Assembly (NCBI GenBank): GCA_037200965.1
Contig: JBBCGK010000001.1
Coordinates: 608,001-672,000, forward strand
Reading direction: 5' to 3'
Length of the DNA: 64,000 nt
Source of the DNA: a bacterium
GTDB lineage: Bacteria; Patescibacteriota; Minisyncoccia; Phycocordibacterales; Phycocordibacteraceae
The notes under the pieces are model-generated. The model ran no database searches, had not been told where the DNA came from, and worked only from the letters and a program-made list of their open reading frames with translations. Position numbers and translations under genes: made by a program. Below are positions 20,440-56,724 of this stretch, one piece after another; position 1 is the stretch's first letter, and every line of letters starts with the position of its first letter.

Positions 20440-21702
20440 TCAGGCCGCAACCGAAAGCCTTTCGGCGACGCGCCTAGGCACGTCGCTGTAGAAGCGCTTC
20501 GGCAGGGATATGCCATCTTTCACGCACCCGTTGTTGAACTTGTTGATCTGGTAGTTCACGCTGCCTTGCCAGATATCAACCAGCGATGCATCCCGCACAT
20601 TCGGATGGACGACGAAGTCGGGTGTGTCGTTTCCGGGGCATCTCCAGACGGCACCATCGTAGTGCAGATAGAGTCCGTGCGTGAGCTGATTGCACGGAGC
20701 GATGCCGATGTAGGATGCGGCGCCTTCATGGTACAGCTGTTCAAGGGTCATGACGCCGCGGGTGATGGCCCAAGTGTAGACGTCGACGGCGAGGTCGAGA
20801 TAGTCGTTCTCGAACTTCTCATCCGCAGCCGACCTCACCAGCTTATGGCCCTTGCCGCTCACCATGGTGGGCGGCATCACAACGGGGATATTTCGTTCGG
20901 TTCCCCACTGATAGAGCTCGAACGCGCCATGTACGTTTTCGCCCGTAACCGGAGCGCAGGCGATCTCGAGGCGCTGATGCAGGAGGTCGCCGTTCATCCC
21001 GAGTCCGCAGAGGCGCTCGATGGCGAGGTTCCGCGCCGCGTGATAGTCGAACCTGATATCGCGGAACTCGCGCAAGTTCTGCGGAATGAAGCGATTTTCA
21101 AGCTCGGGATCGAACGACCGTGCGCCGACGAGGAACGTGGTGTTTGGATATGCCGCAAGACGCCGGGTCAGGTCCTCCGATCCGATCCCGTGATAGTGCC
21201 GCGACAGATGGTCATTGCCCATGATTGCCGCCTTGGTGAAGATACCGGCGATGATGTTCCTTTTCGCCAGCTCATCGAGGATGAAGAAGAGCTTTGAATT
21301 CGCCAGCAGTTCTCCGGGACCGAGAAACTTCATCGACTCGAGCCCGAGCAGTTTCGCCTGGTCGACAACCCGCATGACTTCAGGAAGAGTCATGATCGGA
21401 TTGACCAATTCGGCGTTGTTGAAGCAGCCGGGACAGGCGTGCGGACACGGATAGTTCTTCACGAACGTGTCCTTCGCCTCTTTGGAACCGGGCGCATGCG
21501 CGTTGACCTTGGCCGCAAAACCGGCCTCGGGGATATTGAGATCGAGGGTAAGCATTTTCTTTACGCGCTTGCCTTCAATCTCAACGCTTTCCCCGATACG
21601 GCTTTCAGGGAAGCTCCATTTATACACCATCAATGCGTAGCCGTTCGGGATCTGGCCCTTGGGCGGCAGAATGGGCACAACGGCAGGGAATATGTTTTTC
21701 AT
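20440..21702 (-). CDS. radical SAM protein (CPHACPGC) with a C-terminal Cys-containing region
   Basis: CxxxCxxC motif YPCPHACPGCF; C-terminal cysteines CNQL...WRCPGN...NGC. Confidence 0.65.
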   Translation of the reverse strand: MKNIFPAVVPILPPKGQIPNGYALMVYKWSFPESRIGESVEIEGKRVKKMLTLDLNIPEAGFAAKVNAHAPGSKEAKDTFVKNYPCPHACPGCFNNAELVNPIMTLPEVMRVVDQAKLLGLESMKFLGPGELLANSKLFFILDELAKRNIIAGIFTKAAIMGNDHLSRHYHGIGSEDLTRRLAAYPNTTFLVGARSFDPELENRFIPQNLREFRDIRFDYHAARNLAIERLCGLGMNGDLLHQRLEIACAPVTGENVHGAFELYQWGTERNIPVVMPPTMVSGKGHKLVRSAADEKFENDYLDLAVDVYTWAITRGVMTLEQLYHEGAASYIGIAPCNQLTHGLYLHYDGAVWRCPGNDTPDFVVHPNVRDASLVDIWQGSVNYQINKFNNGCVKDGISLPKRFYSDVPRRVAERLSVAA

Positions 21703-21874
21703 GACGGTAGCCTTTCGGGTTGGGTTGCCTTTCTTTCAAGAAGCTTCGCACTTCTTCCGCAAGTATATTTCTACAAGTCAAGGATGTCAATAGGTCGTAT
21801 GCTAAAATAGGGCTTACTTAAAGCATGTGCACAGTAGTGTGGAACGCGTTTGACACGAATATACCCTATAGAGT

Positions 21875-22678
21875 ATGATTAAACTCATGAAAAAAAGACA
21901 AGAGGACGCGTCAGAAACGCTTCTGTCTTTAGGGCTTTCAAGAAGGGAAGTAGGAGTGTATATCGCGCTTTTAGAGCTTGGACACGGGACGGTCACCCAG
22001 ATATCAAGAAAGGCGGGTATAAATAGGACGACTGGTTACGATATCCTTGATGCGTTAGCGCACAAGAACCTCGCGCGGCTCTCCGGTAAGGAGCCAAAGG
22101 AAGAATACGTGGCTGAATCTCCGGAAAAGCTCGTTACGCTGCTTGATGAGAAGCTGGCAGAGACACAAAAGCAGCTGATCCTTGCGAAGGAATTTCTCCC
22201 GCAACTCAAAGCGATGCATACGGTTCAGGATCGTCCGCAAGTACGGTTCTATGAGGGTGTCGAAGGACTCAAAGAAGTATATGAAGACACTTTGACTTCC
22301 CCGGAACCGATTCGTGCGTACGCCTGTATCGACGACATGCACAAGGCGCTCCCCAACTACTTTCCCGAGTACTATAAACGTCGCGCGCGCAAAGGCATCT
22401 CGATACGCGGCATAGTCCCCGAGACAAAAACGGCGATGGCGCAGGCTGCGTTTAATGCGGAGGAAAAACGCGATATAGCGTTCGTGCCTGCCGATAAGTA
22501 TTACTTCTCTCCGGAAATAAATATTTACGCTAATAAAGTTATGGTGGCATCGTGGCGCGAGAAGCTCGGCATCATCATAGAAAGCGCCGAGATCGCTGAT
22601 GCCATGAAAAAGATATATGAGCTGGCGTGGGCAGAAGCCAAGCGGCTTGATGCGGCGAACTCACCGGTGTCGACATAG
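21875..22678 (+). CDS. TrmB-family HTH transcriptional regulator (paralogue 2)
   Basis: HTH REVGVYIALLELGHGTVTQISRKAGINRTTGYDILDAL. Confidence 0.6.
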   Translation: MIKLMKKRQEDASETLLSLGLSRREVGVYIALLELGHGTVTQISRKAGINRTTGYDILDALAHKNLARLSGKEPKEEYVAESPEKLVTLLDEKLAETQKQLILAKEFLPQLKAMHTVQDRPQVRFYEGVEGLKEVYEDTLTSPEPIRAYACIDDMHKALPNYFPEYYKRRARKGISIRGIVPETKTAMAQAAFNAEEKRDIAFVPADKYYFSPEINIYANKVMVASWREKLGIIIESAEIADAMKKIYELAWAEAKRLDAANSPVST

Positions 22679-22714: not shown

Positions 22715-23854
22715 ATGAAAAGCGTTCGCGATATTCCGGTGCTTGAAAACGTACCGGTATTCGTGCGCTCGTCGCTCAATGTTCCGTTGGTAGATGGAAA
22801 GGTAGCGAACGCGTACCGCATCAAGCACGCGCTTCCCACCATCGAATTCCTCCGGAAAGAGAACGCGCGCATTGTTATCGGAAGCCATATCGGGGAAGCG
22901 GGAACCGAGACGCTCGAGCCCGTATACCTCGCGCTCAAGCAGATGCTCCCCGGCGTCTCGTTCTGCCCGGTCTCTACGGGTCCCCGGGCGCGCGAAGCGG
23001 TGCGGGCGCTTCTGCCGGGCGAAGTTCTCGTGCTTGAGAACCTGCGCAGGAATCGGGGGGAAGTGATGAACGACATGGCGTTTGCCGAAGCGCTTGCCGA
23101 ACTCACGGATGTCTTTGTCGAAGATGCGTTCGATACCTGCCATCGCGAGCACGCATCGATAGTAAGCCTTCCGACGCTCCTGCCTTCGTATGCGGGGCTT
23201 CAGCTCATCGAGGAGATCGCCGAACTCTCGAAGGCGCTCAAACCGAAGGCCCCGTCGCTCGCGGTCATCGGCGGCGCGAAGTTCGGCACCAAGGAGCCCG
23301 TGATCCGCAAGCTTCTCTCCCTCTACACGCACGTGTTTGTGGGCGGCGCGCTTGCGAACGATTTTCTCGCAGCTAAGGGCTATCCCGTGGGAAAGTCGCT
23401 CGTTTCGGGCGGAGATGCCGCCGCTACTAAAGAACTCTTGGTGGATAAGAAACTGGTGCTTCCGCTCGATTCGCTCGTCTGCAAATCCGGCGGCGCGAAA
23501 ACGCCCGGACAGGCACGTATCGCGGGACTTGATGACGTTCAGGAAGACGAAACCATCCTCGATCACGGCCCGAAGACGAATGAAATGCTCGCGAGATTGG
23601 CAGCCGGCGCGAAGACGATTCTCTGGAACGGGCCGCTCGGCCAGTATGAGGCGGGCTTCACGGAAGCGACGGATGCGCTTGCGGTCGCCATCGCCGACTC
23701 AGGCGCGGAGTCATACATCGGGGGAGGAGACACGGAAGCTGCCATCGACTCGCTCGGCCTCAACCGCCGATTCACGTTCATATCGACCGGCGGCGGCGCG
23801 ATGCTTTCGTATCTTGCGAAGGGGACGCTTCCGGGGATTGAGGCGCTGGGCTAG
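22715..23854 (+). CDS. pgk: phosphoglycerate kinase
   Basis: Full-length PGK: N-terminal substrate-binding basic patch, hinge, C-terminal ...STGGGAMLSYLAKGTLPGIEAL. Confidence 0.9.
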   Translation: MKSVRDIPVLENVPVFVRSSLNVPLVDGKVANAYRIKHALPTIEFLRKENARIVIGSHIGEAGTETLEPVYLALKQMLPGVSFCPVSTGPRAREAVRALLPGEVLVLENLRRNRGEVMNDMAFAEALAELTDVFVEDAFDTCHREHASIVSLPTLLPSYAGLQLIEEIAELSKALKPKAPSLAVIGGAKFGTKEPVIRKLLSLYTHVFVGGALANDFLAAKGYPVGKSLVSGGDAAATKELLVDKKLVLPLDSLVCKSGGAKTPGQARIAGLDDVQEDETILDHGPKTNEMLARLAAGAKTILWNGPLGQYEAGFTEATDALAVAIADSGAESYIGGGDTEAAIDSLGLNRRFTFISTGGGAMLSYLAKGTLPGIEALG

Positions 23855-24111
23855 GTTCCGTACAGGTTATGGTGCGTGTCGATGTCCGTGAGGACGATGG
23901 CGTCACCTACCATCTCGTAGATGAGTCGCCAATCGCCGGTCACGTTGATGCTTCGAAAGCCCGTCCATTCTCCCCGCAAGGGATGGTTGTTAAGTAGCGG
24001 GTTTTGAGGATCGGCCATAAACAGCCTAAGGCGCTCGACGAGCGCGCGGCGGATACCAGCCGGTAGGCGCGATACTCGTTTCTCAAACTGTCGTTTGCGG
24101 AGAACCTGCAT
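23851..24111 (-). CDS. RelE/StbE-family toxin (mRNA interferase)
   Basis: 86 aa; its stop overlaps the pgk stop convergently; follows the antitoxin gene on the minus strand. Confidence 0.65.
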   Translation of the reverse strand: MQVLRKRQFEKRVSRLPAGIRRALVERLRLFMADPQNPLLNNHPLRGEWTGFRSINVTGDWRLIYEMVGDAIVLTDIDTHHNLYGT

Positions 24112-24113
24112 GA

Positions 24114-24383
24114 CTATGCGCGTATGGCGCGCGCGAATTCTTCAAGGGACGAAGCGATGAAATGCTCCGGATGTTCGCGGTATTCGCGGCTAAGCGCTTC
24201 CCATTCGCGCAGCTTCTCCGGACGCGGTACAAGCGATACCTCGAACCGCCCGTCGGAAACGAACTGCGCGAGCTGCGCGTTCATAACGGTAGTAAGGGGA
24301 ATGCCGAGCTTCTGCGCGGTGCGCTTCGCGGCATCCCGGAGCTTTTTGTCAGTCTTGATGGTGATAGTTGTTTTCGTATTCAT
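24114..24383 (-). CDS. RelB/DinJ-family antitoxin
   Basis: 89 aa; 2-nt gap to the toxin gene. Confidence 0.6.
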   Translation of the reverse strand: MNTKTTITIKTDKKLRDAAKRTAQKLGIPLTTVMNAQLAQFVSDGRFEVSLVPRPEKLREWEALSREYREHPEHFIASSLEEFARAIRA

Positions 24384-24503
24384 ACCTATATACTACTTTG
24401 GGTATGAGCGTGCTGTCAATCCAATGCAGTTCAAATCTCGTCCGCGAGCCCGCGCACTTCACAAAACCGCCTATCTGGGCGGCTTTGTGTTTAAGAGAAC
24501 GGA

Positions 24504-24890
24504 ATGTTTAAACCAGGTATACTTTTAGTTATGGAAGACTGCATTTTCTGCAAAATAGTGAACCGAGAATCACCTGCCTCGGTAGTGTTTGAAGACGATA
24601 CCTCTATGGTAATTGAACCCATTGATCCTATTTCAAAAGGACATGTACTCGTGCTGCCCAAGAAACATTTTGTGAATATGCTCGATACCGACGACGAGAC
24701 GTTATCTCATCTTGCTGTCGTTTCCAAGAATGTCGGGCACACAGTGCTTGGAAAAAACAACGCTCACTCAATGAACCTTCTCCATGCCGCTGGGATGGAG
24801 GCGCAGCAATCCGTATTCCATCTCCACTTCCATATCGTGCCACGGTATGAGAATGATGGGCTGGATCTCTGGTTTAGGAACAGTCTCTAG
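24504..24890 (+). CDS. HIT-family hydrolase (paralogue A)
   Basis: Histidine triad HLHFHIVP; N-terminus MEDCIFCKIV shared with the HIT at 32203..32559. Start may be 24531. Confidence 0.7.
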   Translation: MFKPGILLVMEDCIFCKIVNRESPASVVFEDDTSMVIEPIDPISKGHVLVLPKKHFVNMLDTDDETLSHLAVVSKNVGHTVLGKNNAHSMNLLHAAGMEAQQSVFHLHFHIVPRYENDGLDLWFRNSL

Positions 24891-24991
24891 GATTAGAGAG
24901 GATACTGGAATCGAACCATTCTCTCAGAAAGCACAGTAAGCTGAGCTAACACAATTTCGGTATAAGAATATAGCCCCTACACTCTCTTATC

Positions 24992-25504
24992 TTGGTTCCA
25001 ACAGCGTCTACGAGCTCGCGCACTCTGGACGATAGTGGAACTGCTATAGTTCCTGATATGGAAATTCCACAGATTAAGATGATTTACGCTTATCCGTTAG
25101 ACGAGGACAGGCGACGGTTTTTCTCTCAACAAAACTTAGGCCGGTATCCCTCCGTTGAAGAGGTCAGGGATACGACTTCTCACTGGAGAAATGTATGGAA
25201 TGAAACCAATAGAGACAACAGGATCGTCTTAACGTTACAAGAGTTAACGAAGAGAGTGCCAACGCGGAGCTTAGAGTGTTTCATTATCGGAGGAGGCATT
25301 AAAGCCATGTCTACCCCCTTCATTATTTCAGTCAGAAAAAGAAATGGGGAAGAGCGCTCAGATCAAGACTTCATCGAGACGCTAATTCACGAAGCAGCGC
25401 ATATTTTCGTATCAGACGTTCCGGCCTACTTCGACTCTCTTCGCGAGAAATATTCCGGGAGCCGCTATCTGCCCGGAATCATATACTCATTTACGCGCTA
25501 TTAG
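24992..25504 (+). CDS. hypothetical protein with HExxH motif (possible small metallopeptidase)
   Basis: LIHEAAHIF motif; AT-rich codon usage unlike the core genes. Confidence 0.3.
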   Translation: MVPTASTSSRTLDDSGTAIVPDMEIPQIKMIYAYPLDEDRRRFFSQQNLGRYPSVEEVRDTTSHWRNVWNETNRDNRIVLTLQELTKRVPTRSLECFIIGGGIKAMSTPFIISVRKRNGEERSDQDFIETLIHEAAHIFVSDVPAYFDSLREKYSGSRYLPGIIYSFTRY

Positions 25505-25690
25505 AGAAACTATACTTAGACCTATTTAATTCTCGCCCAAGTGACTTTGCTAACAGTGACCTGCCGGACAGTTATATCCGAGCGATAGAAATCGTTAAGC
25601 AAGAGGGTTACGAAAAGCTGATTGAAGAATACCAGTCCTTCGTGTAGTAGTTCCGAGGTTGTCCGTAAGGTCGCGACCCTCCCATCTGTT

Positions 25691-25770
25691 TCACAAATAT
25701 GCCCGAATCTTCCCCGCATTCCCCTCGAAATCCATTTTGTCCCCTTCCGCTTGGCCTGGGAATATCCAGA
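25691..25770 (-). pseudogene. 3'-terminal fragment (26 codons) of a HIT gene
   Basis: ~93% DNA identity to 32203-32275; translates IWIFPGQAEGDKMDFEGNAGKIRAYL* versus VWIFPGQAEGDKMDFEGNAERIRARL*. Confidence 0.7.
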
Positions 25771-25775
25771 TATTC

Positions 25776-25848
25776 AATCGGTGGCAACGCGGTAGTAGCG
25801 TATCTTGCATGGGAAACGCTTCCGGGGACTGAGGCGCTGGAATCCTAG
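25776..25848 (+). pseudogene. diverged 3'-terminal fragment of a pgk gene
   Basis: Translates ...SIGGNAVVAYLAWETLPGTEALES* versus the pgk C-terminus ISTGGGAMLSYLAKGTLPGIEALG*; ~75% DNA identity. Confidence 0.6.
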
Positions 25849-26615
25849 AGAGCCTTCCACATAAAGGCATGCATATTTTTAAACAGATTAGCGATATCCT
25901 TGTTTTCGATAACAACCGCAGATAAGTCCCGGAGACTTATAAGCGCGACCTTTTCGTTGAAAACAAGAACGTCGACATTGGACGTAAACCATTCGGGGAG
26001 CCGTTTGTCTGATTTATTTTCATATCCGTTCTTCTCGCGCAGAGCTCGCAGTTTTTTGTAGGTTTTAGCGCTTGCGATAAACAAATCCTTCGCCTTAAAC
26101 GCGTGATCGCTATTTGTCTTGTCGAAATCGCCGTATTCTGCTTCGGTGAAGTTTTCGAAGAAAATATCGGCGGGGAAGATGGAATACGTATCGCCGAGCG
26201 TTTTAAACAGTTCCTCGTAAATATTCTTGATCGCACGCTTTCCTTCGAAGAAGCCGACCTTGGGCTTGTTCGTCGCGCGTTCATATATCTTGCTCATGAC
26301 GGCGGCAGTCGAGTCGAATGCTAGAAGCTCCTTCCTAAGATTTGCGGCGACGGTCTTCGGATCGACTGCCGCGTACAGCGTGCGCTTGCCGATAGGTATC
26401 CGAGTAATGAAACCCTTTTTGAGCAGAAGATCCAGATATTCGTAGCAGGTAGCGCGCCGCACGTCCGCTTGGCGGACTATATCCGCGACTCCCATGCGGC
26501 TTTTCCCGAGAAGCGACACGTAAATCACCGCAGCCTTATCCGGCAAACCGATTCGTTCCAACTCCTTTATGAACGGGATATGTTCCATAAGTTCATATAA
26601 GCTGACTTGGAACAA
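25845..26615 (-). CDS. TrmB-family HTH transcriptional regulator (paralogue 3)
   Basis: HTH KAAVIYVSLLGKSRMGVADIVRQADVRRATCYEYLDLL. Confidence 0.6.
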   Translation of the reverse strand: MFQVSLYELMEHIPFIKELERIGLPDKAAVIYVSLLGKSRMGVADIVRQADVRRATCYEYLDLLLKKGFITRIPIGKRTLYAAVDPKTVAANLRKELLAFDSTAAVMSKIYERATNKPKVGFFEGKRAIKNIYEELFKTLGDTYSIFPADIFFENFTEAEYGDFDKTNSDHAFKAKDLFIASAKTYKKLRALREKNGYENKSDKRLPEWFTSNVDVLVFNEKVALISLRDLSAVVIENKDIANLFKNMHAFMWKAL

Positions 26616-26720
26616 ATGTCAACGAAAGCGACATATTTTACCAGTACCCTCTAAACCACCCTTCACTTTATAAGTCTATTAATAAATATAAGCGTTATTC
26701 CAGACACAAGTACCCATTTA

Positions 26721-27245
26721 TTGAATACTGGGCGGGCTGGTATGGCGCTAAAATCAAAGACAACTCTGCAAACCAAACGCGGCATTTTCGAAGTCGGATA
26801 TTACGTTGTAGACGGGAATCCTTATGTTTCTTTCCGCTACGGGGATGTTTCCCAGGGCAGACCAATAGTGCGATTACAGTCGGCTTGCCTTTTCGGGGAG
26901 GCTTTCGGTTCGCTTGAGTGCGAGTGTGGCGCGCAACTTGCCAAGGCTCTGGACGCCATTGTTAGCCGCGGGGCGGGTCTTGTGCTCTATGCCTATGCGG
27001 AAGGTCGTGGCGCAGGGCTTGAGAAAAAGATAGAAGCTATGGAGATTCAAAGGACGACCGGATGCAATACAGTCGAAGCTTTTGACTCGCTTGGTCTTGA
27101 GAAGTCCGACTACCGGGATTATCAGGCTGAGGTGAACATCCTCACCGAGTTAGGCACAAGCCTCCATATCTGCTTGTTTTCGAAAAATCCAGCTCGATAT
27201 CAAGCGCTCAAAGACGCAGGCTTCGATGTAGATCCATATGAGTAG
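26721..27245 (+). CDS. GTP cyclohydrolase II-like protein (RibA/ToxB-like)
   Basis: Zinc-ligand motif RLQSACLFGEAFGSLECECGAQL with the three conserved Cys; ...YAEGRGAGL... matches the GCH II core. Start may be ATG 26742. Confidence 0.7.
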   Translation: MNTGRAGMALKSKTTLQTKRGIFEVGYYVVDGNPYVSFRYGDVSQGRPIVRLQSACLFGEAFGSLECECGAQLAKALDAIVSRGAGLVLYAYAEGRGAGLEKKIEAMEIQRTTGCNTVEAFDSLGLEKSDYRDYQAEVNILTELGTSLHICLFSKNPARYQALKDAGFDVDPYE

Positions 27246-28140
27246 CTCGTCTGAGCTTATGTATCGTTGGCTTCGCGTATCTCCTACCGGAGACGGATAT
27301 ATCGAGCCCGATTATTACGATCAGCTTCTCAGAAAGTATATCTTTGATGGTAAAGAGGATACCGAGTACTTCCGAGAACATCTTGCAAAAGCACCTTCTC
27401 ATTCAGCATTTCTTGAGCTTGGCCCCGGGACCGGACGAGCGACAAATATACTATTCGCATCGGTTCCGGACATACATTCGCTTACGCTCGTTGATTTAAG
27501 CAGCCGTATGCTTAGTAGCTGCAAACAAGTTTTCACCCGCAAAGAATGCATTTCTTATGTCGTTTCCGATTCCATAGATTTCCTGTTGTCAGTGCAGTCG
27601 TCGTACGACTATATCTATAGCCTGTGGAGTCTTTCTCACTCCATACACAAGAATCTTGAAGACTTGGGAAAAGAAGACGGAAAAGCAAAAGTACGAGAGG
27701 CGCTCTTAAAAATGGTACGGGAGAATCTCAACCGGAACGGCTCTTTATTCCTGATACATTTCGATTCTTCCTCTCCCGAGCAGGAAATATCTATTCGGCA
27801 AAGGCGGCGCGATTCCCGTGACCGGAAATTGTTTGCAGATGTCTCCAAACAAAGTCCCTCTAAGGAAATACTCGACGAGTGCCTTGAAGAATTAAGGCGC
27901 TCGGGTGAGATCTGTTTTGAATGTGAGAGGCATGTAGGTACAGCGCTCGAATTCAGTTCGCTCGACGAAGCGCTCGAGTATTATCTTAATTTCCATATGG
28001 CTTCGTATTTCAATACCTCAAGTTCGATCGACGACATCTTGAAGGAGCTTTCTCAGGATTTACTGGAACACCAAGGGAGTGATGGAAAGATACGGATCGT
28101 TCCCGGTTGCTTCATCTACAAAGCAAGTAAGCCTGGTTAA
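27238..28140 (+). CDS. class I SAM-dependent methyltransferase
   Basis: Motif I LELGPGTGRAT; its ATG overlaps the stop of the GCH II-like gene by 8 nt. Confidence 0.65.
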   Translation: MSSSSELMYRWLRVSPTGDGYIEPDYYDQLLRKYIFDGKEDTEYFREHLAKAPSHSAFLELGPGTGRATNILFASVPDIHSLTLVDLSSRMLSSCKQVFTRKECISYVVSDSIDFLLSVQSSYDYIYSLWSLSHSIHKNLEDLGKEDGKAKVREALLKMVRENLNRNGSLFLIHFDSSSPEQEISIRQRRRDSRDRKLFADVSKQSPSKEILDECLEELRRSGEICFECERHVGTALEFSSLDEALEYYLNFHMASYFNTSSSIDDILKELSQDLLEHQGSDGKIRIVPGCFIYKASKPG

Positions 28141-28176
28141 ATGTTGGTTGCCAGAAAGCTCCCTATATAAAAATCA

Positions 28177-28998
28177 CTAAGATACTTGGCTATTCATCAG
28201 ATCGCGCAAAAGCTCGTTCGCATCTATAAGCTGCGAATGCTCCTGCATAAATTCAAAGGCGGAAAGAATCATTTTTTGTATCTCCGAGTTCTTGACTTCG
28301 ACAATCAATCCTTCGCTTAAGGAGAAGAGATATAAGGAATCCTTAAATATCCAGCACTGGCCGCCATGCCTGAAGTACTTTGGATCAATAACATTGACTC
28401 TCGCGGTGCGTCCTTCGAAATCTTTCACCCATTGTATTCCTAGAGAACGCGCTTGTTCCTCAAGCCACCCGATTGGCAAGACAGCTTCGGTAATCGTACG
28501 GCCCTTCTTTATATCGCGGTTTATTCGGTTTGTTTCGGAAACGGTGAACAGGGTATTCCAACTCTTGGTCGCGCGGTCACCTTGGAAGCCCCAGAAGAAC
28601 CGTTGGTTCTTGTTCGCTTCAAAGAGCTCAAGCATGACCTTCCTAATTGCTTCTTTTCCCCGATAGATACATACCGTTGAGTCAGCGCGACCGTGAACCT
28701 GTTGGTTTCCTTCGGGTATTTGCAGCAAGAAACGCTTGAAATCGTATAGTGCCTGATCAATAGTATCTCCGCTATGCAATTGCCACCGCTTGCGTCCTTT
28801 GGCGATGCGCGAAACGGCCAGCCCTCGTTTATGCAGATTCGCCAAAATCGCATAAATGGCAGAGCGGGAGATTCCCGTCTGGCGAGTCAGCTTTAAGGGC
28901 GTATCCGCACCGTCGCGAAGCGCCAAGAGAATCTTCCTTTCCTTGATTGAGAGGCCGAGTATTCGCAGATCATCGTGAAGTGCCATACGGCAAAACAT
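28177..28998 (-). CDS. TrmB-family HTH transcriptional regulator (paralogue 4)
   Basis: HTH KERKILLALRDGADTPLKLTRQTGISRSAIYAILANL. Confidence 0.55.
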   Translation of the reverse strand: MFCRMALHDDLRILGLSIKERKILLALRDGADTPLKLTRQTGISRSAIYAILANLHKRGLAVSRIAKGRKRWQLHSGDTIDQALYDFKRFLLQIPEGNQQVHGRADSTVCIYRGKEAIRKVMLELFEANKNQRFFWGFQGDRATKSWNTLFTVSETNRINRDIKKGRTITEAVLPIGWLEEQARSLGIQWVKDFEGRTARVNVIDPKYFRHGGQCWIFKDSLYLFSLSEGLIVEVKNSEIQKMILSAFEFMQEHSQLIDANELLRDLMNSQVS

Positions 28999-29169
28999 AG
29001 CAAAAGGTATATAACCTGTCCACTTTCTTAGACAGATATATAAAGCATAAAAACCCTTATATACAGCTTATTTCCAGTATTACTCAACTTAGAGAATACC
29101 TTACTATACTGTCAATGTCTTTAGGATCATTCTTATAGAGGGAACTAGAACTTTATATGGGAGACCGCT

Positions 29170-30318
29170 ATGGCTTGCGAAACGAACGAAGTGCCGCAGG
29201 AAGTGACCGCGATCGATCGTTGGATTGACCACGTATTGCACGGAGAAAAGGATACTGCGATTCCAACGTTACTTGGTCGGGAAGTTCCACCTCTTTTGTC
29301 GTGGATAGTGCGGGGCGGATGCGCGATACAGTGCCGCCACTGCATCTTTCCTCACGAAGGCCCGAAAACCTTCGGCGTGCAAACGGGCGAGGAAGCGCTT
29401 CTCGGCATTCTCCGCCAGTTGTCCGGTTCGCGCCACCTCATTCACGAAGGAAGGCAGCTACTTCCGTGGCAGGTACCGATCTTGGCGGCTGCAGGCCGCG
29501 CAGGACACGGAGTATCGCTTATCAATAACGGACAATATGCAGCGCCGAATATGCTGGCGCTATGCGAGCGAGAGGGGCTCGCAATCGACGCGCTTGACGT
29601 GTCGGTCGACGGTACGAAAGATATCCACAATGGACAGCGCGCGAGCAATAATGCCTGGGACATCGCAATGAAAGGGATTGTGCATGCCAAGCACATACTC
29701 AAGACCGATGGCAAACTTACTTCTCTCTTCACGCTCACCACGCTCAATCACGCGCACTTAGCCGAAACGGGAGAGATGCTCACGCAGGTGGTCGATGAAT
29801 GGCACGTGACGACGATGTCGTTACGGCCGGGGATCGAGCACCTGCGGGCAGGCGATCGCGAACTCGCCTTAGCGCTTGAACAATTGCTCGGCGGCAACTT
29901 CGCGAAACCAGTGTTCCTGCGTACCTATTCTCTCGACGATTTTGTCGCTCTGCTTGGAATTCTCGGAAAAGAAACGGCAAATAGGGTTCTCAGGAACGCG
30001 CTGGTGACTTATAACGCCATCGTACTCGATATCGGAATACCCCTGTACTTCTATCCTAAGTCCCTGCAGGTGAATGAAACGTTAGTGATCGACGCGGATG
30101 GGTGGTGGCGTCTGCCGTTTTGCATCCATCACTCGCTTGCGGAACTGCGGGCGGGAGAGGATGAGATGGGCAAGGATATTTCGCATTTCAATGTCGTCCC
30201 GGTACTGCCGTGCGTGGATGTCCCAACTCTCCATGCCAAGGCCGCATCGAGATGGTGGGTCAGTATAGGCCGGGATTGTTTATCGCTTGAGCGCCAGGCG
30301 CTCGAAGCGTTTCTCTAA
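29170..30318 (+). CDS. radical SAM protein (CAIQCRHC)
   Basis: CxxxCxxC motif GGCAIQCRHCIFP ~60 residues from the N-terminus; 382 aa; AT-rich promoter region upstream. Confidence 0.65.
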   Translation: MACETNEVPQEVTAIDRWIDHVLHGEKDTAIPTLLGREVPPLLSWIVRGGCAIQCRHCIFPHEGPKTFGVQTGEEALLGILRQLSGSRHLIHEGRQLLPWQVPILAAAGRAGHGVSLINNGQYAAPNMLALCEREGLAIDALDVSVDGTKDIHNGQRASNNAWDIAMKGIVHAKHILKTDGKLTSLFTLTTLNHAHLAETGEMLTQVVDEWHVTTMSLRPGIEHLRAGDRELALALEQLLGGNFAKPVFLRTYSLDDFVALLGILGKETANRVLRNALVTYNAIVLDIGIPLYFYPKSLQVNETLVIDADGWWRLPFCIHHSLAELRAGEDEMGKDISHFNVVPVLPCVDVPTLHAKAASRWWVSIGRDCLSLERQALEAFL

Positions 30319-30341
30319 CAACCGGAAAGGAGGTGAAAACT

Positions 30342-30461
30342 ATGTCCGGAGCCAATACCGGTTCCGCTGGCGTGGATGCGAAAGCACGTCCGCCAGTGCA
30401 ATCGTCAGGGGCGAATACCGGTTCGACGGGCGTAACGACGCCGCGTTTGCCGCGTAAGTAG
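30342..30461 (+). CDS. 39-aa repeat-containing peptide ORF immediately downstream of the radical SAM gene (candidate precursor peptide)
   Basis: Perfect SD AAAGGAGG 8 nt before ATG, 23 nt after the rSAM stop. MSGANTGSAGVDAKARPPVQSSGANTGSTGVTTPRLPRK carries SGANTGS(A/T)GV twice. Confidence 0.35.
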   Translation: MSGANTGSAGVDAKARPPVQSSGANTGSTGVTTPRLPRK

Positions 30462-30471
30462 CCTCGGTGAC

Positions 30472-30520
30472 TACAGAGAGCCCGTTCACGCTTTTGATTC
30501 GCGTGGGCGGGCTCTTCTCT
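30472..30520 (+). terminator. structured hairpin with T-rich tail after the peptide ORF
   Basis: gagagcccg...cgggctctt followed by ctcttttat. Confidence 0.35.
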
Positions 30521-30738
30521 TTTATACACTAAATGTGATTCTCGATGTTTCTTTAGAATCGATCGGTCGCCGTTCGCGTAGCCGAGACGGGTCTAACAAT
30601 CGAACGATAGCGGCGCAATGCTCAAGTCTCTTGCGGCTGAATGTTTTCAGCGATTGAAGCATTGAGAGACTAAACAGATTACTCTATTCATAAAGACGCA
30701 TATACCACCTCGTAAAGTCACCCAATACCGCTTTGGTA

Positions 30739-31554
30739 TCAACGACGAATATGAAAATCCTTGGATATACGGCGTTTCCACGCGGCGGCTTTCCCAGGGT
30801 CTTTAGCAATTTTTACCTTTGATGTAACTTCGTGATCTAACTTCTTCAACTTATCCTTGGCGCGCTCAAGGTCGGTTTCCGTTTTAAAGAGAAGTTCGAC
30901 TGCCTTTCGAGCTTTGGGATTAAAACGCACTTCAATCACCCATTCGTGGATTACGGCAATAAACACTTCTTGACGAACTTTCGGCGAGTACGATACCTCA
31001 ACGTTAGAGAATGCGAGCTCCCGGGTTGCGAGCTTGTCGAGCGCCGAAGAGGAGCCGATGAGAAGATAGGCTCTTCTTCCTTTTGCTCCAAGGAGCATAT
31101 CGTGGCTTTTGTCGCTATCGCCACGCAGTACACTCGACCAATTATGCGGATTAAAGAGGTAAAGGTGCTGGCGGTGAGGAACACCCTTTTCAATTACTGA
31201 AAACAGATGGGACCATATCCGATCCATAGCAGTAAGACCATGAATGGTAAGCGTGATCTCTTCTCCGCGTTCAAGCTGACTGAAGTCGCCGAGGATGGAA
31301 CTGTTTTTATATTCGACAAGCTGGCGAAGCTGCTTTAACCAATGTTCGCTTACCGATACGGCAGAACGGTAGACGATAACCTTCTCTTGCGCTCTCAGCT
31401 TTCTAAGCGCCCTATAAAAACCCTGCTTCGTGCAGGCGTGCTTCCTCCTCAGGCCTTTAAGGAGCTCAGTAGTCGTAACCGCTCCTTTTTGAAGTACAAA
31501 AGTAAGGACTGAATCTTCAAGGCGGCTGCCTAACAGTTGCATAGCAGTAAACAA
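30739..31554 (-). CDS. TrmB-like HTH regulator (paralogue 5, more divergent)
   Basis: N-terminal wHTH LTFVLQKGAVTTTELLKGLRRK... with a C-terminal TrmB-like effector domain. Confidence 0.45.
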   Translation of the reverse strand: MFTAMQLLGSRLEDSVLTFVLQKGAVTTTELLKGLRRKHACTKQGFYRALRKLRAQEKVIVYRSAVSVSEHWLKQLRQLVEYKNSSILGDFSQLERGEEITLTIHGLTAMDRIWSHLFSVIEKGVPHRQHLYLFNPHNWSSVLRGDSDKSHDMLLGAKGRRAYLLIGSSSALDKLATRELAFSNVEVSYSPKVRQEVFIAVIHEWVIEVRFNPKARKAVELLFKTETDLERAKDKLKKLDHEVTSKVKIAKDPGKAAAWKRRISKDFHIRR

Positions 31555-31643
31555 CCCGTTTACTATACACCCATTTTGGCCCAGATGCTTGAGCTTGGCA
31601 AAAGGCGGGTTCTAAATGTACGCGGACGGAAGAACCGTTCTCT

Positions 31644-32081
31644 TTGGAGGAACGAACTATGTGTTTTTGTGGCTATGATCCGAAAATGGGCGAGAGCGTC
31701 CGGGTGTTTGCTGAGGGGTTGAATCGATCCCTCAGCGCCAAGGCCGAGCGTCTCGGTCTTACCATGTCCGCGCAGATGCAATCGGAAGCGCTCGAGCTGA
31801 ACGCGCTGATCGAACTCCTGAACCAGAAGCTCGCGAACTCGGAAGACTCTCGACGACATGAGCTGGAAGGACTGCTCGGCATCGTGTACCTCATTCGTGC
31901 TCTTATGCAGCCGGAACGAAACGAGATATCCGTTCGCAGCGACTTCGAACTCTCAGTTCGCACGCGGGCAGTTCGACTGGACGAGAGCATGATTCGCTTC
32001 GAACAAATCTTCGAATCCGACCAGGGTGATTTTCTCAGCGAGCGGCTTCGTCGTGCGGTTGCTGCCGCAATTGAGGCTTAA
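31644..32081 (+). CDS. hypothetical protein
   Basis: 145-aa ORF at the distal end of the island. Confidence 0.35.
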   Translation: MEERTMCFCGYDPKMGESVRVFAEGLNRSLSAKAERLGLTMSAQMQSEALELNALIELLNQKLANSEDSRRHELEGLLGIVYLIRALMQPERNEISVRSDFELSVRTRAVRLDESMIRFEQIFESDQGDFLSERLRRAVAAAIEA

Positions 32082-32202
32082 TTTCAGCCTGTCCCTTCTT
32101 GAGAACCCACGTTCTTCTGCTGCTATGCGGTGGAGAACGGAGGGTTCTTCTTTTCGTTTTGGGTTCCGACAGCGCCTGCAGGCTCGCTGAGCTTTACTGG
32201 TT

Positions 32203-32559
32203 CTACAAACGCGCCCGAATCCTCTCCGCATTCCCCTCGAAATCCATTTTGTCCCCTTCCGCTTGGCCCGGGAATATCCAGACATGGGCATGCGCCACTT
32301 CCTCGCCGACGCTCTTCGAGATAATCCAATCGGTATTGAAAGCCTTTTGCTGCGCTCTCGCGACTTTCCGGACAACTTCGAAATAGCGGCCGATGTCGGG
32401 AACGTCCCATATCCAGCGGTAGTGCTGTTTCGGTATGACCTGCACGTGGCCTGGCGTTTCCGGATGGATATCGATAAACGCGAGGAAGAAATCGTCCTCA
32501 TATACCTTGTATGAAGGAATCTCGCCCCGGACGAGCTTGCAGAACACGCAGTCTTCCAT
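32203..32559 (-). CDS. HIT-family hydrolase (paralogue B)
   Basis: HAHVWIFP histidine triad; start MEDCVFCKLV at 32559 (the 176-aa ORF is over-extended). Confidence 0.7.
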   Translation of the reverse strand: MEDCVFCKLVRGEIPSYKVYEDDFFLAFIDIHPETPGHVQVIPKQHYRWIWDVPDIGRYFEVVRKVARAQQKAFNTDWIISKSVGEEVAHAHVWIFPGQAEGDKMDFEGNAERIRARL

Positions 32560-32605
32560 GAAGGAAATATAGCGCACGGAGGAATTCTGGTACAATCCAC
32601 CAACG

Positions 32606-34336
32606 ATGTTTCCGCTCCATGGTCCTTTGGACGAACGAATACGGGAAATACTCTCCGAGTATGACGACCTGACCGCCGCGCTGCTCTCGCGCAGGGGCAT
32701 TACGACCAAGAAAGAGGCCGAAACCTTCCTCAACCCGAGCTATGAGGAGCATCTCCACGATCCGCTCCTTATAAAGAACATGCCGGGGGCGGCGAAGATG
32801 CTTGCGGAAGCGATTGCCTCGGGCGAGCGCATCTGCGTATGGAGCGATTATGACTGCGACGGCATTCCGGGCGGCGTCCTTCTCCATGATTTCCTCAAGA
32901 AAGCGGGCGCGAACTTCGAGAACTATATCCCGCACCGGCATGACGAAGGATACGGGCTCAATATTCCGGGGCTCGAGAAGCTTGCGGGGAGCGGCGTGAA
33001 GCTCGTCGTGACGGTCGATTCCGGCATCACGGATGTCGAACAGGTCGCGCGCGCGAAAGAGCTCGGCATGAAAGTCATCGTGACCGACCACCACCTGCCG
33101 GGCCCCGCGCTTCCTCCGGCTGATTTCGTTATCGACCAGAAGCAGGAAGGAGAAACGTCGCCGTACCAGGAACTGTGCGGCGCGGGAGTCGCGTGGAAAC
33201 TCGCCTGCGCGACGCTTGCGGTCGCTCCCGGGCTTCGGGAGAAGATTCCTGTCGGCTGGGAGAAGTGGCTTCTCGATATGGCGGGGCTCGCGACGATCGC
33301 CGACATGGTTCCGCTTACGGGCGAGAACCGGGTTATCGCGAAATACGGACTCCTGGTCATGCGAAAATCGCCGCGCATTGGCCTGCAAAGACTTTGCCGC
33401 GTCGCCCGCGTCGAGCAGCGCTCGATCACCGAAGGCGATGTGGCGTTCATGCTCGCGCCGAGGATAAACGCGGCGTCGAGAATGCTCGATCCGCGCGACG
33501 CGTTCGACCTTCTCACGACAAGCGATGAGATAGAGGCGGACGAGCTCGCGAAGAAGCTCGAGAAAGCGAACCGGGCACGTCGCGCGTCCGCCGGAGCGAT
33601 AACGCGGGAGGTGCACGACCGGATTGACGAGCGCCTTTCGGTGCCGGACGCCGAACTCCCTGCCGTGATCGCGATCGGGAATCCTTCGTGGCGCCCGGCC
33701 CTTCTGGGGCTCGTCGCAAGCGGCGTCGTCGAGGAGTACGCGCGCCCGGTATTTCTTTGGGGGAGGGAAGCGGACGGCCGCCTCAAGGGTTCGTGCCGCA
33801 CGGACGGGACGGTGAACGTGGTCGAGCTCATGGAAGCCGCGAAGGATACCTTCGTCGAATTCGGCGGCCATGCCGCGTCCGGCGGATTCACCGTCCGCGA
33901 CGACGCGGTTTTTTATCTTGAGGAACGCCTTTCGGAAGCGAAATCGAAACTGAAGTCCGCGGAAAGTGCCGACGCGTTCTCGCACGCGGACGCCGAGATC
34001 GCTCCGCATGAAGTCACGGCAGCCCTTCTGTCGAAATTAGAGAAGCTCGCGCCCTTCGGAGAGGGAAACCCAAAACCGCTCTTCCATTTCCGCGACGTGC
34101 TCCTTGACGAAGCGTCGCGCTTCGGGAAAGGAGAGGAGCACCTGCGCCTCCTTATCATGAGCGACGGCTTCAAGCCGCTCGAAGCGATCTGTTTCTTCGC
34201 GAAGCGCGAACTTGGGGCGAAGTGCTTCGAGTTTTCGGAAGGGGACCGCGTGCATGTGCTCGCGCATCTCGAGCGAAATCAGTTTTCGAAATACGGTTCC
34301 GTGCGGCTGCGGTTGGTTGACGTAAAGAGGGTTTAA
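32606..34336 (+). CDS. recJ: single-stranded-DNA-specific exonuclease RecJ
   Basis: DHH motifs (DYDCDG, VTVDSG, VTDHH) and DHHA1 domain; 576 aa. Confidence 0.85.
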   Translation: MFPLHGPLDERIREILSEYDDLTAALLSRRGITTKKEAETFLNPSYEEHLHDPLLIKNMPGAAKMLAEAIASGERICVWSDYDCDGIPGGVLLHDFLKKAGANFENYIPHRHDEGYGLNIPGLEKLAGSGVKLVVTVDSGITDVEQVARAKELGMKVIVTDHHLPGPALPPADFVIDQKQEGETSPYQELCGAGVAWKLACATLAVAPGLREKIPVGWEKWLLDMAGLATIADMVPLTGENRVIAKYGLLVMRKSPRIGLQRLCRVARVEQRSITEGDVAFMLAPRINAASRMLDPRDAFDLLTTSDEIEADELAKKLEKANRARRASAGAITREVHDRIDERLSVPDAELPAVIAIGNPSWRPALLGLVASGVVEEYARPVFLWGREADGRLKGSCRTDGTVNVVELMEAAKDTFVEFGGHAASGGFTVRDDAVFYLEERLSEAKSKLKSAESADAFSHADAEIAPHEVTAALLSKLEKLAPFGEGNPKPLFHFRDVLLDEASRFGKGEEHLRLLIMSDGFKPLEAICFFAKRELGAKCFEFSEGDRVHVLAHLERNQFSKYGSVRLRLVDVKRV

Positions 34337-38984: not shown

Positions 38985-39931
38985 CGCACTAACATATCGA
39001 ACACTCTTGCAGTCGAGCATACGGCGTCTTGAGCTCGATGCCAAGGTGCGGCCGTTCGTGGTTGTATTCGCGCAGAAAGGCCTGATACTGGGCATTGAGG
39101 TCCTCCATTGAAGCGGGCTTTTTCATGAAGCGCCAGAAGAACTCCTCCTCGTCGGTGCGGAATGACCGCTCGATGACCGCGTTCTCATTCGGGTTCGCCT
39201 TGTGGATGAAATGATGCTTCCAGCCGAGTTCCCCAGTCACGAAGGCGCGGAAGCGGCTCTGGAACTCAAGGCCGTTGTCGGTCTGCACGAAATCCGGTAC
39301 GAACGGCAGCGAAACCGTCCGCAGGGCCTCGATGGAGAAGTCCTGCACGAGCTCGGGGAAGATGACGCCAGCTTTGTATCGGCTCCAAATATCAATGACG
39401 GCATACAGATACAGGGTATGCGGGAGCCCCGACAGCTCGGGCGTCACGTACTTCACATCCATCTGAAGCTTCCCGGGCGCGGTCACGTTCTTGAGATACA
39501 TATGCGTGGTCTCCTGATATCTCGGCCGTCGGTATGACGCGCCTTCCAGTATATGACCTTTCGCTTTGAGGAAGCGATGGATGGTCGCCGGGTGCTCGGA
39601 GAGGCCGAGCAGCACTTTGAGCTTGCGCGCCCCGTATCCTTTCTCTTCGCGCAGGCGCAAGAGCGCCTCAGCCCGCTCTCCCGAGAGCGTCCTGCGGCGA
39701 AGACGCTTCGGTCTTGTCGACTTGCGGACAAGCTGCCGCGTCGAGAGCGCAAACCGGCTCCGGATGCTCCGGGCTCGCTTCTTCCAGAACACCACCGTGC
39801 CCGGAGATATGCCGAGTGTCCGTGCGGTTTCGCGCACCTTTCCTCCCGACTTCTTCAATTTCCTGATGATTTCCCTGGGTTCTTTGCGCATATCCTCCTT
39901 AGTATTAGGGAGTGTTCGATATGCAGTGCGA
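38985..39931 (-). mobile_element. IS481-family insertion sequence
   Basis: Imperfect terminal IRs tcgcactaacatatcgaacactc (38985-) and gggagtgttcgatatgcagtgcga (-39931); single tpase ORF 38989..39891. Confidence 0.75.
38989..39891 (-). CDS. IS481-family DDE transposase
   Basis: N-terminal HTH plus rve integrase core (DNG...E). Confidence 0.8.
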   Translation of the reverse strand: MRKEPREIIRKLKKSGGKVRETARTLGISPGTVVFWKKRARSIRSRFALSTRQLVRKSTRPKRLRRRTLSGERAEALLRLREEKGYGARKLKVLLGLSEHPATIHRFLKAKGHILEGASYRRPRYQETTHMYLKNVTAPGKLQMDVKYVTPELSGLPHTLYLYAVIDIWSRYKAGVIFPELVQDFSIEALRTVSLPFVPDFVQTDNGLEFQSRFRAFVTGELGWKHHFIHKANPNENAVIERSFRTDEEEFFWRFMKKPASMEDLNAQYQAFLREYNHERPHLGIELKTPYARLQECSIC

Positions 39932-52391: not shown

Positions 52392-52549
52392 CGGCCCGTT
52401 CGCAAGAACCGGTACAACACTTGGGCGCGGGCCCGGACCACAAATCCGGGCCTTTGCTTTTCCTAGAAAACCCGCTACTCTATGGATAACGCCTCGGCGC
52501 TTTTATTTTTACCGCTTCCAGACACAACACATCCCTTACGTACTAGTAT

Positions 52550-54697: not shown

Positions 54698-54715
54698 CTT
54701 CCTGAGTATCAGGCA

Positions 54716-54748
54716 AAACCCCGGCGTGCTGTGCACGCCGGGGTTTTG
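54716..54748 (+). terminator. rho-independent terminator after fusA
   Basis: aaaaccccggcgtgc-tgt-gcacgccggggtttt. Confidence 0.6.
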
Positions 54749-54936
54749 CTCATCTTTCCGCTTCTTGCAATCTTCAGGGCGTTCGGTTACATTCAACATA
54801 ACGCAGGCCTGCGGCTTTTTGCTGTTTCAGCGGGAAGTCGCGCCGCGGCAATTATCCGATTCGCGTCTTGCGCCTTGGTCGCCTGCCCTTCGCAGGCAGG
54901 CGCGCGCGGTAACAGTTCCGATAACTTTACAATCAT

Positions 54937-56139
<1,203 letters not shown>

Positions 56140-56162
56140 GGTTCCAATCGGTTCGAAAAAGA

Positions 56163-56190
56163 AAAGCCCCGGCCTTGGCCGGGGCTTTTC
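56163..56190 (+). terminator. rho-independent terminator after tuf
   Basis: aaaagccccggcc-ttgg-ccggggctttt. Confidence 0.6.
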
Positions 56191-56236
56191 TACTTGCGCT
56201 TTTAGCGGCCATGGTGCATACTCGCGGATACGTTCT

Positions 56237-56617: not shown

Positions 56618-56640
56618 CCGTATTTTAAAAGGAATGAAGA

Positions 56641-56668
56641 AAACCGCCGGTAGGCGGTTTCCTTTTTT
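56641..56668 (+). terminator. rho-independent terminator after rpsJ (unusual inside an S10 operon)
   Basis: aaaccgcc-ggta-ggcggttt then cctttttt. Confidence 0.55.
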
Positions 56669-56724
56669 GTGCTGAAGGCAGGGCCTGTGCTAGGCTTTGA
56701 CGGGACAACTGTGAAGGTAGATCT

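Follow-up and report, generated by a model that had tools for sequence, protein, structure and literature searches.

GTP cyclohydrolase II (GCH II) is usually read as a sign of riboflavin synthesis, and automatic annotation does so for the gene considered here. This gene is the first of an overlapping pair in a 64,000-nucleotide stretch of a patescibacterial genome (assembly GCA_037200965.1, contig JBBCGK010000001.1, positions 608,001 to 672,000; hereafter the window), and the second encodes a methyltransferase (MT) of the class I type dependent on S-adenosylmethionine (SAM). In RibA, the GCH II of riboflavin synthesis, Tyr105 is a catalytic residue needed for the release of formate. The GCH II reaction proceeds in two steps via a formylated intermediate, and in archaea each step has an enzyme of its own (PMC9478397). 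According to a review, one of three RibA homologues of Streptomyces coelicolor has a role not related to flavin synthesis (PMC13151069). Streptomyces relatives identified in this analysis carry Met at the Tyr105 position together with an HSAC motif and belong to the same subfamily as the window enzyme, from which they differ in sequence (about 39% identity), in keeping a C-terminal tail and in having no coupled MT or TrmB regulator. The flavin-unrelated S. coelicolor paralogue, which we take to be SCO6655 (the third GCH II paralogue of that species), is also a stand-alone GCH II fold; Spoonamore and Bandarian reportedly found in 2008 that it has Met at the Tyr site and makes a formamidopyrimidine (FAPy) compound, and that exchanging Tyr and Met switches the product.

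Several other systems resemble the locus in part. In the scheme of archaeal GTP cyclohydrolase III (ArfA) with the formamidase ArfB and the bacterial BrbF, the chemistry is the one predicted below, GTP to 2-amino-5-formylamino-6-ribosylamino-4(3H)-pyrimidinone 5'-phosphate (the FAPy nucleotide, AFRPP), and removal of the formyl group falls to a separate enzyme or does not take place (PMC9478397). The analogy is one of function only, and neither ArfB nor BrbF (creatininase-like) is encoded near the operon. The fold of ArfA differs from that of GCH II. Non-riboflavin routes are fed by GCH II-type enzymes in vicine synthesis, where VC1 itself acts as a GCH II (bioRxiv 10.1101/2020.02.26.966523), and in the chlamydial folate bypass, where RibA works with TrpF and again acts as a GCH II (PMC4161248). 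The UTP cyclohydrolase of pyrimidine catabolism (PDB 7EEV) uses the GCH II fold on another nucleotide; it has about 400 aa and 23% identity to the window enzyme by Foldseek. The toxoflavin (tox) locus is similar in that it encodes a homologue of GCH II together with a SAM methyltransferase and draws GTP away from riboflavin into a specialised product. Toxoflavin synthesis further requires ToxC, ToxD and the RibD-like ToxE, and the substrate that ToxA methylates is the finished azapteridine. The window differs in lacking these partners and in having an MT from another family.

The pair and its divergent TrmB-family regulator are tentatively read here as a horizontally acquired three-gene accessory unit that would convert GTP to a FAPy nucleotide and then to a methylated product. 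An earlier reading made from the letters of the window (the sequence-only reading) had proposed a GTP-derived small-molecule pathway instead of riboflavin synthesis. That general proposal remains the best reading, because the enzyme is not an ordinary riboflavin RibA, no rib genes were found among the window genes scanned, and the MT and regulator are conserved with the enzyme, the MT being coupled to it; its toxoflavin and deazaflavin versions were not borne out.

A conserved regulator-enzyme-methyltransferase unit

The features of the locus are collected in Table 1. The frame of gene 1 is open from TTG 26721 or ATG 26742 through 27245. The true start is almost certainly ATG 26742, because public annotation uses it and because protein conservation begins at that ATG in two metagenomic contigs, L017 and L126; the TTG, apparently a merely mechanical start, reads TGG at the same position in the alignment with these contigs. 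The ATG of the MT gene (27238-27240) precedes the TAG of gene 1 (27243-27245), which confirms the 8-nt overlap reported in the sequence-only reading. Three public records of the genome place the MT start 21 nt later, at 27259. In L017 and L126 the junction is ATGAATAG (an ATGARTAG pattern) with no alternative Met nearby, and by this comparison the overlapping start at 27238 is the conserved one. No Shine-Dalgarno or promoter-like element precedes either candidate MT start, which fits coupling by termination-reinitiation; the translational coupling proposed earlier agrees with this and with the retention of the overlap in both contigs. The operon consists of exactly two genes, since the next gene downstream is convergent.

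Table 1. Features of the operon, its regulator and its left boundary (window coordinates)
Feature	Position	Strand	Description
Gene 1	26742..27245	+	Stand-alone 167-aa GCH II-fold enzyme, Tyr-less subfamily
Gene 2	27238..28140	+	300-aa class I SAM-dependent MT, distinct uncharacterised family
Stop/start overlap ATGAGTAG	27238..27245	+	8 nt, putative translational coupling, read from sequence
TrmB1 regulator	25845..26588	-	TrmB-family winged-helix protein, PF01978 47.9 bits; divergent from operon; start per public annotation
Imperfect palindrome	26613..26637	.	Candidate TrmB1 operator; ATGTC-N9-GACAT at 26616-26634, 28-46 nt upstream of trmB1 ATG
Promoter-like blocks	26698-26706 TTCCAGACA; 26717-26731 TTTATTGAATACTGG	+	Both invariant in three-lineage alignment; putative promoter role
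Recombination scar	25688..25840	.	Left edge of operon segment; direct repeats D1, D2

The arrangement of TrmB1, GCH II and MT genes recurs in L017 and L126, which are independent contigs. Their GCH II-like genes encode 167 aa with 60% and 55% identity to gene 1, the MT of L017 belongs to the same family as that of the window (65% identity), and the identity of module proteins to those of the window is 55-65% across the two contigs. TrmB1 orthologues hold the same divergent position in both, and an orthologue with 55% identity has a GCH II-like gene as its neighbour in L043, a locus from Saccharibacteria. As three lineages keep the overlap, the divergent TrmB regulator and the intergenic motifs, the three genes form a selected unit. 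The flanking TrmB-like regulators to which the sequence-only reading had assigned control do exist, with PF01978 matches of 49 bits (21875-22678), 47.9 bits (25845-26615) and 25.9 bits (28177-28998), whereas no TrmB domain is detectable in the gene at 30739. The adjacent regulator is part of the conserved unit in all three lineages, and its relation to an operator is predicted from the motifs described below.

The ATGTC-N9-GACAT pattern has its sole exact match within the window in the intergenic region. A block containing it, AAAyGTCAAyrAAwsCGACAyATT, is conserved in L017, L126 and L043, where in the last (a Saccharibacteria metagenome-assembled genome, MAG) it lies upstream of the 55%-identical regulator, and the palindrome may thus be the TrmB1 operator. 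The second intergenic block has the three-lineage consensus TTyCAGACA, and the third, TTTATTGrATACTrG, ends about 10 nt before the ATG of gene 1. This third block probably serves as a -10 element and gives a near-leaderless transcript with a very short leader, because a TATAxT box 5-12 nt ahead of the start codon, with no Shine-Dalgarno sequence, is found at many genes of the genome. Between 16800 and 37000 of the window, at least 10 of the 23 annotated gene starts have such a TATAxT-like box 5-12 nt upstream and no Shine-Dalgarno sequence. This pattern suggests that leaderless or very-short-leader mRNAs are widespread, with Shine-Dalgarno sequences at few genes, most of them internal to operons. 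Simple sigma-70 and terminator scans returned nothing useful around the operon, and the sigma-70 scan did not call the third block. An Rfam search of the window found no family that reaches its gathering score and no flavin mononucleotide (FMN) riboswitch. Riboswitch control of the operon was rejected, as the only nearby Rfam hit with E<1 is a chance miRNA match.

A GCH II-fold enzyme lacking the catalytic tyrosine

The gene 1 product matches PF00925 (GTP_cyclohydro2) with E 3e-33 and 115 bits (cut-off 23.3) and aligns with Escherichia coli RibA (PDB 2BZ0) over 147 residues. Its AlphaFold model has a predicted local distance difference test (pLDDT) score of 93.9 and template modeling (TM) scores of 0.82-0.84 to 2BZ0 and to the Helicobacter pylori enzyme (4RL4). 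The RibA zinc-site signature noticed in the sequence is intact, with C49, C60 and C62 matching E. coli Cys54, Cys65 and Cys67, and Arg125 corresponds to the E. coli nucleophile Arg128. The enzyme thus shares with RibA (E. coli 2BZ0, H. pylori 4RL4 and Mycobacterium tuberculosis RibA2, 4I14) the fold, the zinc triad and all of Arg49, Arg94, Lys101 and Arg128 (E. coli numbering, as for Tyr105 and Glu53 below). It differs in the replacement of Tyr105 by Met100 (IEAMEIQ versus IRAYALQ), where all three solved structures compared have Tyr; in the replacement of Glu53 by Ala48; in lacking the C-terminal tail and a rib gene context; and in scoring below all curated NCBIfam cut-offs for RibA and RibBA (best NF001591, 119.1 versus 148; TIGR00505, 100.6 versus 205.85). 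The substituted catalytic tyrosine and the low scores support the earlier view that this is not an ordinary riboflavin RibA.

The subfamily was delimited by scoring the query against 1.84 billion representative proteins and aligning the best 150 hits. The zinc cysteines and Arg128 are retained in nearly all of the 181 aligned domains, and the Tyr105 position is occupied by Tyr in 78, Met in 57, Ile in 23 and Leu in 14. The proteins closest to the query or the clade profile are nearly all stand-alone and combine Met, Leu, Ile or Val at Tyr105 with Ala, Ser or Gly at Glu53, in contrast to RibBA-type fusions and E. coli RibA, which have Tyr at 105 and mostly Glu or Gln at the Glu53 position. The Tyr-less pattern is likewise present in 27 loci from GTDB species genomes. 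By these two positions the query belongs to a distinct stand-alone Tyr-less subfamily, and we consider it very probably a member of this branch and not a housekeeping RibA. Some proteins (P0046 and P0050, each of about 990 aa, P0053, P0084 and P0134) are multi-domain and contain the GCH II-like domain in two or three copies. The Tyr of P0046 and P0050 occurs only in the C-terminal copy and is missing from both N-terminal ones, and the zinc cysteines are lost from the second copy of P0084 and P0134.

The closest relatives of the module genes are found in Patescibacteria MAGs. Genome hits to the Tyr-less subfamily are concentrated in Patescibacteria (including Saccharimonadales, Nomurabacteria, Paceibacterota and Dojkabacteria) and in DPANN (MAGs labelled Woesearchaeota, Pacearchaeota and Micrarchaeota). 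MAGs with other labels (Gammaproteobacteria, Methanosarcinales, Verrucomicrobiales, Chthoniobacterales and Pseudomonadales) and cultured or named organisms (Streptomyces, Paenibacillus and Sphingomonas) also contribute hits.

A methyltransferase of a distinct family

The identification of gene 2 as a class I methyltransferase with the GxGxG motif LELGPGTGRAT proved correct. Pfam models Methyltransf_25 (36 bits) and Methyltransf_11 match above their cut-offs, and the structure model (pLDDT 93.6) gives Foldseek E values down to 1e-12 with many class I MTs. The family to which it belongs has characteristic motifs (YPWL, SLWSxSHSxH, LIHFDSxSxEQ, QSPSK, EALExxLNFH and PGCFxY) and has many conserved positions that are polar, His or Cys; neither in Pfam nor in NCBIfam was a model dedicated to it found. 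The nearest folds by Foldseek are HvrF, BioC, Tam and JHAMT (TM 0.55-0.6, about 15% identity), and PDB profile matches include phosphoethanolamine N-MTs, KsgA/Erm and NTMT1, in the SAM-binding half only. All of these are generic class I MTs of the small-molecule type, too mixed for a substrate to be assigned from structure or sequence.

Outside the module, the family occurs in other settings. About 40 of 80 other metagenomic loci (L046-L125; 66 of the 80 had at least 600 bp of upstream sequence) contain a class II aminoacyl-tRNA synthetase (aaRS)-like gene, a UbiE-like MT, an MT of this family and an LD-carboxypeptidase (S66), and the closest MT branch (50-55% identity) has different neighbours again. 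The aaRS-like gene is a tRNA-synt_2 gene with no anticodon domain; the cluster also includes a gene of about 400 aa on the opposite strand, of no known function, and L014 adds an ATP-grasp gene. This cluster looks like an uncharacterised small-molecule pathway. In L012, from the closest MT branch not linked to GCH II, a TIM-barrel gene (3-467, +) just upstream of the MT has a faint match to phosphoribosylanthranilate (PRA) isomerase, TrpF (E 0.01). TrpF-type enzymes act on N-ribosylamines, and this neighbour suggests, if only weakly, that compounds of the ribosylamine type are what the MT family handles.

Proposed pathway

In the proposed mechanism, TrmB1 would bind the conserved palindrome in the divergent promoter region and control its own gene and probably the adjacent bicistronic, near-leaderless operon. 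The gene 1 enzyme is predicted to be zinc-dependent, to release pyrophosphate and to open the imidazole ring of GTP, given the retained Cys triad, Arg49, Arg94, Lys101 and Arg128. With no Tyr to promote the second hydrolysis, formate would not be removed, and the predicted product would be AFRPP and not the riboflavin precursor 2,5-diamino-6-ribosylamino-4(3H)-pyrimidinone 5'-phosphate (DARoPP). Gene 2 would be made in a fixed ratio to gene 1 by termination-reinitiation at the overlap, and its product would methylate the FAPy product or a close derivative to give a methylated formamidopyrimidine (nucleotide). On balance, we expect the compound made by the gene 1 enzyme to keep its formyl group; that the MT acts on this product is proposed with more reserve.

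A number of points weigh against this pathway. To our knowledge, the SCO6655 work mentioned above is the sole biochemistry for the Tyr-less subfamily. The Streptomyces proteins of L037 and L044, possible orthologues of SCO6655, have their Met at position 111 by the most plausible start, whereas Met120 was the position looked for. The substrate of gene 1 may differ from GTP, as the fold family includes the UTP cyclohydrolase mentioned above. The query, like the L017 and L126 proteins, lacks a C-terminal tail of about 30 aa that most relatives possess. In E. coli crystals this tail is largely disordered and the chains have only 168-173 ordered residues, so the query covers the ordered core. The nearest structural neighbours of the MT are carboxyl O-methyltransferases, and a FAPy nucleotide has no carboxylate. 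The scan for rib genes covered genes of the window, out of a genome of roughly 1 Mb. Finally, most GCH II relatives have no MT, the 27 genome loci have other neighbours, and a GCH II-like open reading frame (ORF) occurs within 5 kb in 0 of the 80 other MT loci. Among the loci of GCH II relatives, an MT homologue was found in this strain's own, in L017 and in L126 and in no other. A general GCH II-MT partnership is not supported by these loci; the pairing is a lineage-specific recruitment, yet a stable one.

A broader extension, which we regard as speculative and unlikely as a whole, is that a large, uncharacterised Tyr-less GCH II branch, kept by ultra-small symbionts (Patescibacteria and DPANN) in which riboflavin synthesis appears to be missing, makes formamidopyrimidine nucleotides as the entry to several pathways, and that here, with an MT and a TrmB sensor, it would lead to a previously undescribed methylated ring-opened guanine nucleotide. 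If so, the methylated product could act in the relationship between symbiont and host, whether as an antimetabolite, as a signal or as an exchange compound. The module could reveal whether genome-reduced symbionts make a GTP-derived specialised metabolite, and it offers a compact system, with two small soluble proteins, for learning the product of the Tyr-less branch.

The assignment also bears on annotation. Riboflavin biosynthesis is listed among the functions of genes transferred horizontally among Patescibacteria (PMC12455944). A sizeable group of Patescibacteria and DPANN genes lacks the Tyr for the riboflavin reaction and lies in non-riboflavin contexts, and metabolic reconstructions should therefore not count such genes as RibA. 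The supplements of PMC12455944 contain no match for cyclohydrolase, and a literature search returned no paper that connects GCH II to either Patescibacteria or DPANN.

Alternative explanations

The main rival to the FAPy pathway is a role in guanine-nucleotide catabolism, salvage or pool sanitation, in which the Tyr-less GCH II would irreversibly destroy GTP or a damaged or modified GTP. It may thereby feed ribose-5-phosphate or pyrimidine salvage or clear the cell of a toxic nucleotide, with the MT detoxifying or unrelated. The RibA of E. coli is also active on 8-oxo-GTP and can hydrolyse GTP to GMP and pyrophosphate. Neighbours of the relatives speak for such a role: a NADAR/COG3236 gene directly follows the GCH II-like gene in L018 (918-1340) and in L019 (8494-8930, split into two ORFs), and other relatives lie in an ABC-transporter operon. 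In L020 this operon comprises, by Pfam, genes for an NMT1/THI5-type binding protein, a sulfatase-like protein, NIF3, a second sulfatase-like protein, GCH II and an ABC permease plus ATPase; L021 and L023 match it by ORF-size pattern, and in all three loci it lies at about 3100-9600. The NADAR/COG3236 family includes an N-glycosidase that cleaves early riboflavin intermediates (PMC6793443), and Patescibacteria depend on scavenged nucleotides (PMC11665869). The module itself, however, has no NADAR, transporter or sugar-phosphate enzyme gene, and its stoichiometric MT coupling and dedicated regulator look more like synthesis of a defined product. We consider a catabolic or sanitising role possible but unlikely for the module. 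As a separate observation, the GCH II-NADAR pairing hints at a route from GTP through a ring-opened nucleotide to a free pyrimidine and ribose-5-phosphate.

A second recurrent operon of Tyr-less GCH II genes occurs in Saccharibacteria (L031/L032) and contains phosphodiesterase-like, serine hydroxymethyltransferase (SHMT)-like, aminotransferase, HAD phosphatase, GCH II and glutamyl-tRNA-reductase-like genes. The Pfam scan was made on L031; L035 is assigned by ORF pattern, and in it the glutamyl-tRNA-reductase-like gene forms a fusion with a GluRS-like domain. In a Paenibacillus, L034 has a cluster that is similar in part and includes a HAD gene; in all four loci the genes lie at about 3600-10200. 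Both recurrent operons are uncharacterised. The neighbours of the remaining relatives are unrelated housekeeping genes, and no riboflavin genes were found among the scanned neighbours of the GCH II relatives.

Next in standing is mere co-transcription, with an orphan GCH II-like gene and an orphan MT packed together by a compact genome and functionally unrelated. Both families mostly occur apart, and the MT family usually lies beside the aaRS-like, UbiE-like and LD-carboxypeptidase genes described above, as this explanation would have it. On the other hand, three lineages whose proteins are only 55-65% identical have kept the overlap at exactly 8 nt, along with the regulator and the order of the genes, which is hard to explain with no joint selection, and unrelated function is judged improbable.

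The public annotation of gene 1 as GTP cyclohydrolase II corresponds to a housekeeping RibA for riboflavin synthesis with an unrelated MT downstream. This agrees with the PF00925 match, with a RibA subfamily model being the best NCBIfam match, and with the intact zinc site and Arg128. The sub-cut-off scores and the replaced Tyr105 argue against it, as do the absence of rib genes among the window genes scanned (a Pfam list for about 16.7-37 kb plus 30 larger ORFs elsewhere) and of an FMN riboswitch. The gene also sits in an inserted segment of low GC content, and its subfamily is concentrated in Patescibacteria and DPANN, which generally lack cofactor pathways. A housekeeping role is accordingly very unlikely.

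The toxoflavin-type (ToxB plus ToxA) and deazaflavin (Fo) routes were suggested by the MT adjoining the GCH II homologue and by two radical SAM genes within 7 kb. The analogy with ToxB/ToxA did not hold: no ToxC, ToxD or RibD-like deaminase/reductase (ToxE) gene lies within 10 kb, where the genes are for TrmB-like regulators, radical SAM proteins, HIT proteins, a toxin-antitoxin pair, pgk, tpiA and recJ, and no ToxA match for the MT appears in 10 sequence hits (E<=1), 55 PDB profile hits (E<=0.01) or the top 50 Foldseek hits. The two radical SAM genes are present, as noted earlier, at 20440 and 29170. Classification with NCBIfam/TIGRFAM models gives neither of them a CofG, CofH, ThiH or HydG match, and the deazaflavin link falls with this result. 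Their weak matches (17-26 bits) are to NirJ/AhbC/AhbD, PqqE, nif11 and HxsB maturase models, of the SPASM, peptide or haem type. Their homologues are not co-conserved with the GCH II-MT pair in the loci of relatives, and each adjoins a TrmB-like regulator of its own that is transcribed divergently. Immediately behind the radical SAM gene at 29170-30318 come a strong Shine-Dalgarno sequence GGAAAGGAGGTGA and an ATG at 30342 (30324-30461, +), which opens a 39-aa ORF, MSGANTGSAGVDAKARPPVQSSGANTGSTGVTTPRLPRK, with the internal repeat SGANTGS[AT]GV; the regulator of this unit is at 28177-28998. The 39-aa ORF looks like a candidate precursor peptide of a module resembling those for ribosomally synthesized and post-translationally modified peptides (RiPPs), and this radical SAM gene is therefore probably part of a separate peptide-modification module. 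Contradicted by this gene content, a toxoflavin or Fo pathway is highly improbable.

A defence-system reading was also rejected, since PADLOC gives no hit for the GCH II gene, a generic MT-domain hit to mad2 for the MT and a generic HIT-family hit for the HIT gene. IMG/VR viral contigs contain no relatives of the GCH II or MT family.

Structure of the island and neighbouring genes

HIT-domain genes at 24504-24890 and 32203-32733 flank the island as the sequence-only reading described, although they are not parts of the pathway and mark a recombination scar. A relic of a HIT gene 3' end (25688-25773, 86 nt) is 90% identical to 32200-32285, and a relic of the pgk 3' end (25774-25840, 67 nt) is 76% identical to 23783-23849; the two meet at 25773|25774, with HIT' first and pgk' second. 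Such a junction is expected if a circular fragment (pgk-3' to HIT-3') integrated by homologous recombination, or if a tandem duplication was followed by loss. The abutting relics imply that the HIT genes mark how the segment arrived, not what the segment does. Between 24 and 32 kb the GC content is 46-52%, compared with 55-64% in most other parts of the window, and the scar separates the cargo of this low-GC region into one segment at 23850-25687 and another at 25841-32199.

The window also matches a 960-kb MAG contig (GCA_037975565.1, JBBCBH010010897.1), and three shorter public contigs carry the locus as well. The surrounding housekeeping genes are of kinds typical of a small genome and include those for a pilus/secretion ATPase, tpiA, pgk, recJ, comEC, nusA, clpP and RNase Y, together with several TrmB-type regulators. 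At the left edge of the variable region (23851-24383, -) lie genes for a YafQ/RelE-type toxin (86 aa) and an antitoxin (89 aa), and the 3' end of the toxin gene overlaps the pgk stop codon by 4 nt. Transposase/integrase genes of the rve type are located at 38989-39891 (-) and 49807-51003 (+). About 11 kb at 52475-63960 consist of large ORFs (up to 774 aa), mostly on the minus strand, with no Pfam match at E<=1e-4.

The architecture of a winged helix-turn-helix regulator divergent from its cargo is repeated four times (20440-22678, 25845-28140, 28177-30461 and 30739-32081). The respective cargoes are a radical SAM/SPASM gene, the GCH II-MT pair, a radical SAM gene plus peptide, and a 145-aa gene of no known function. 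The regulators of these units are TrmB-family in three cases and of undetectable family at 30739, and a fifth TrmB paralogue of the window is located at 2661-3434.

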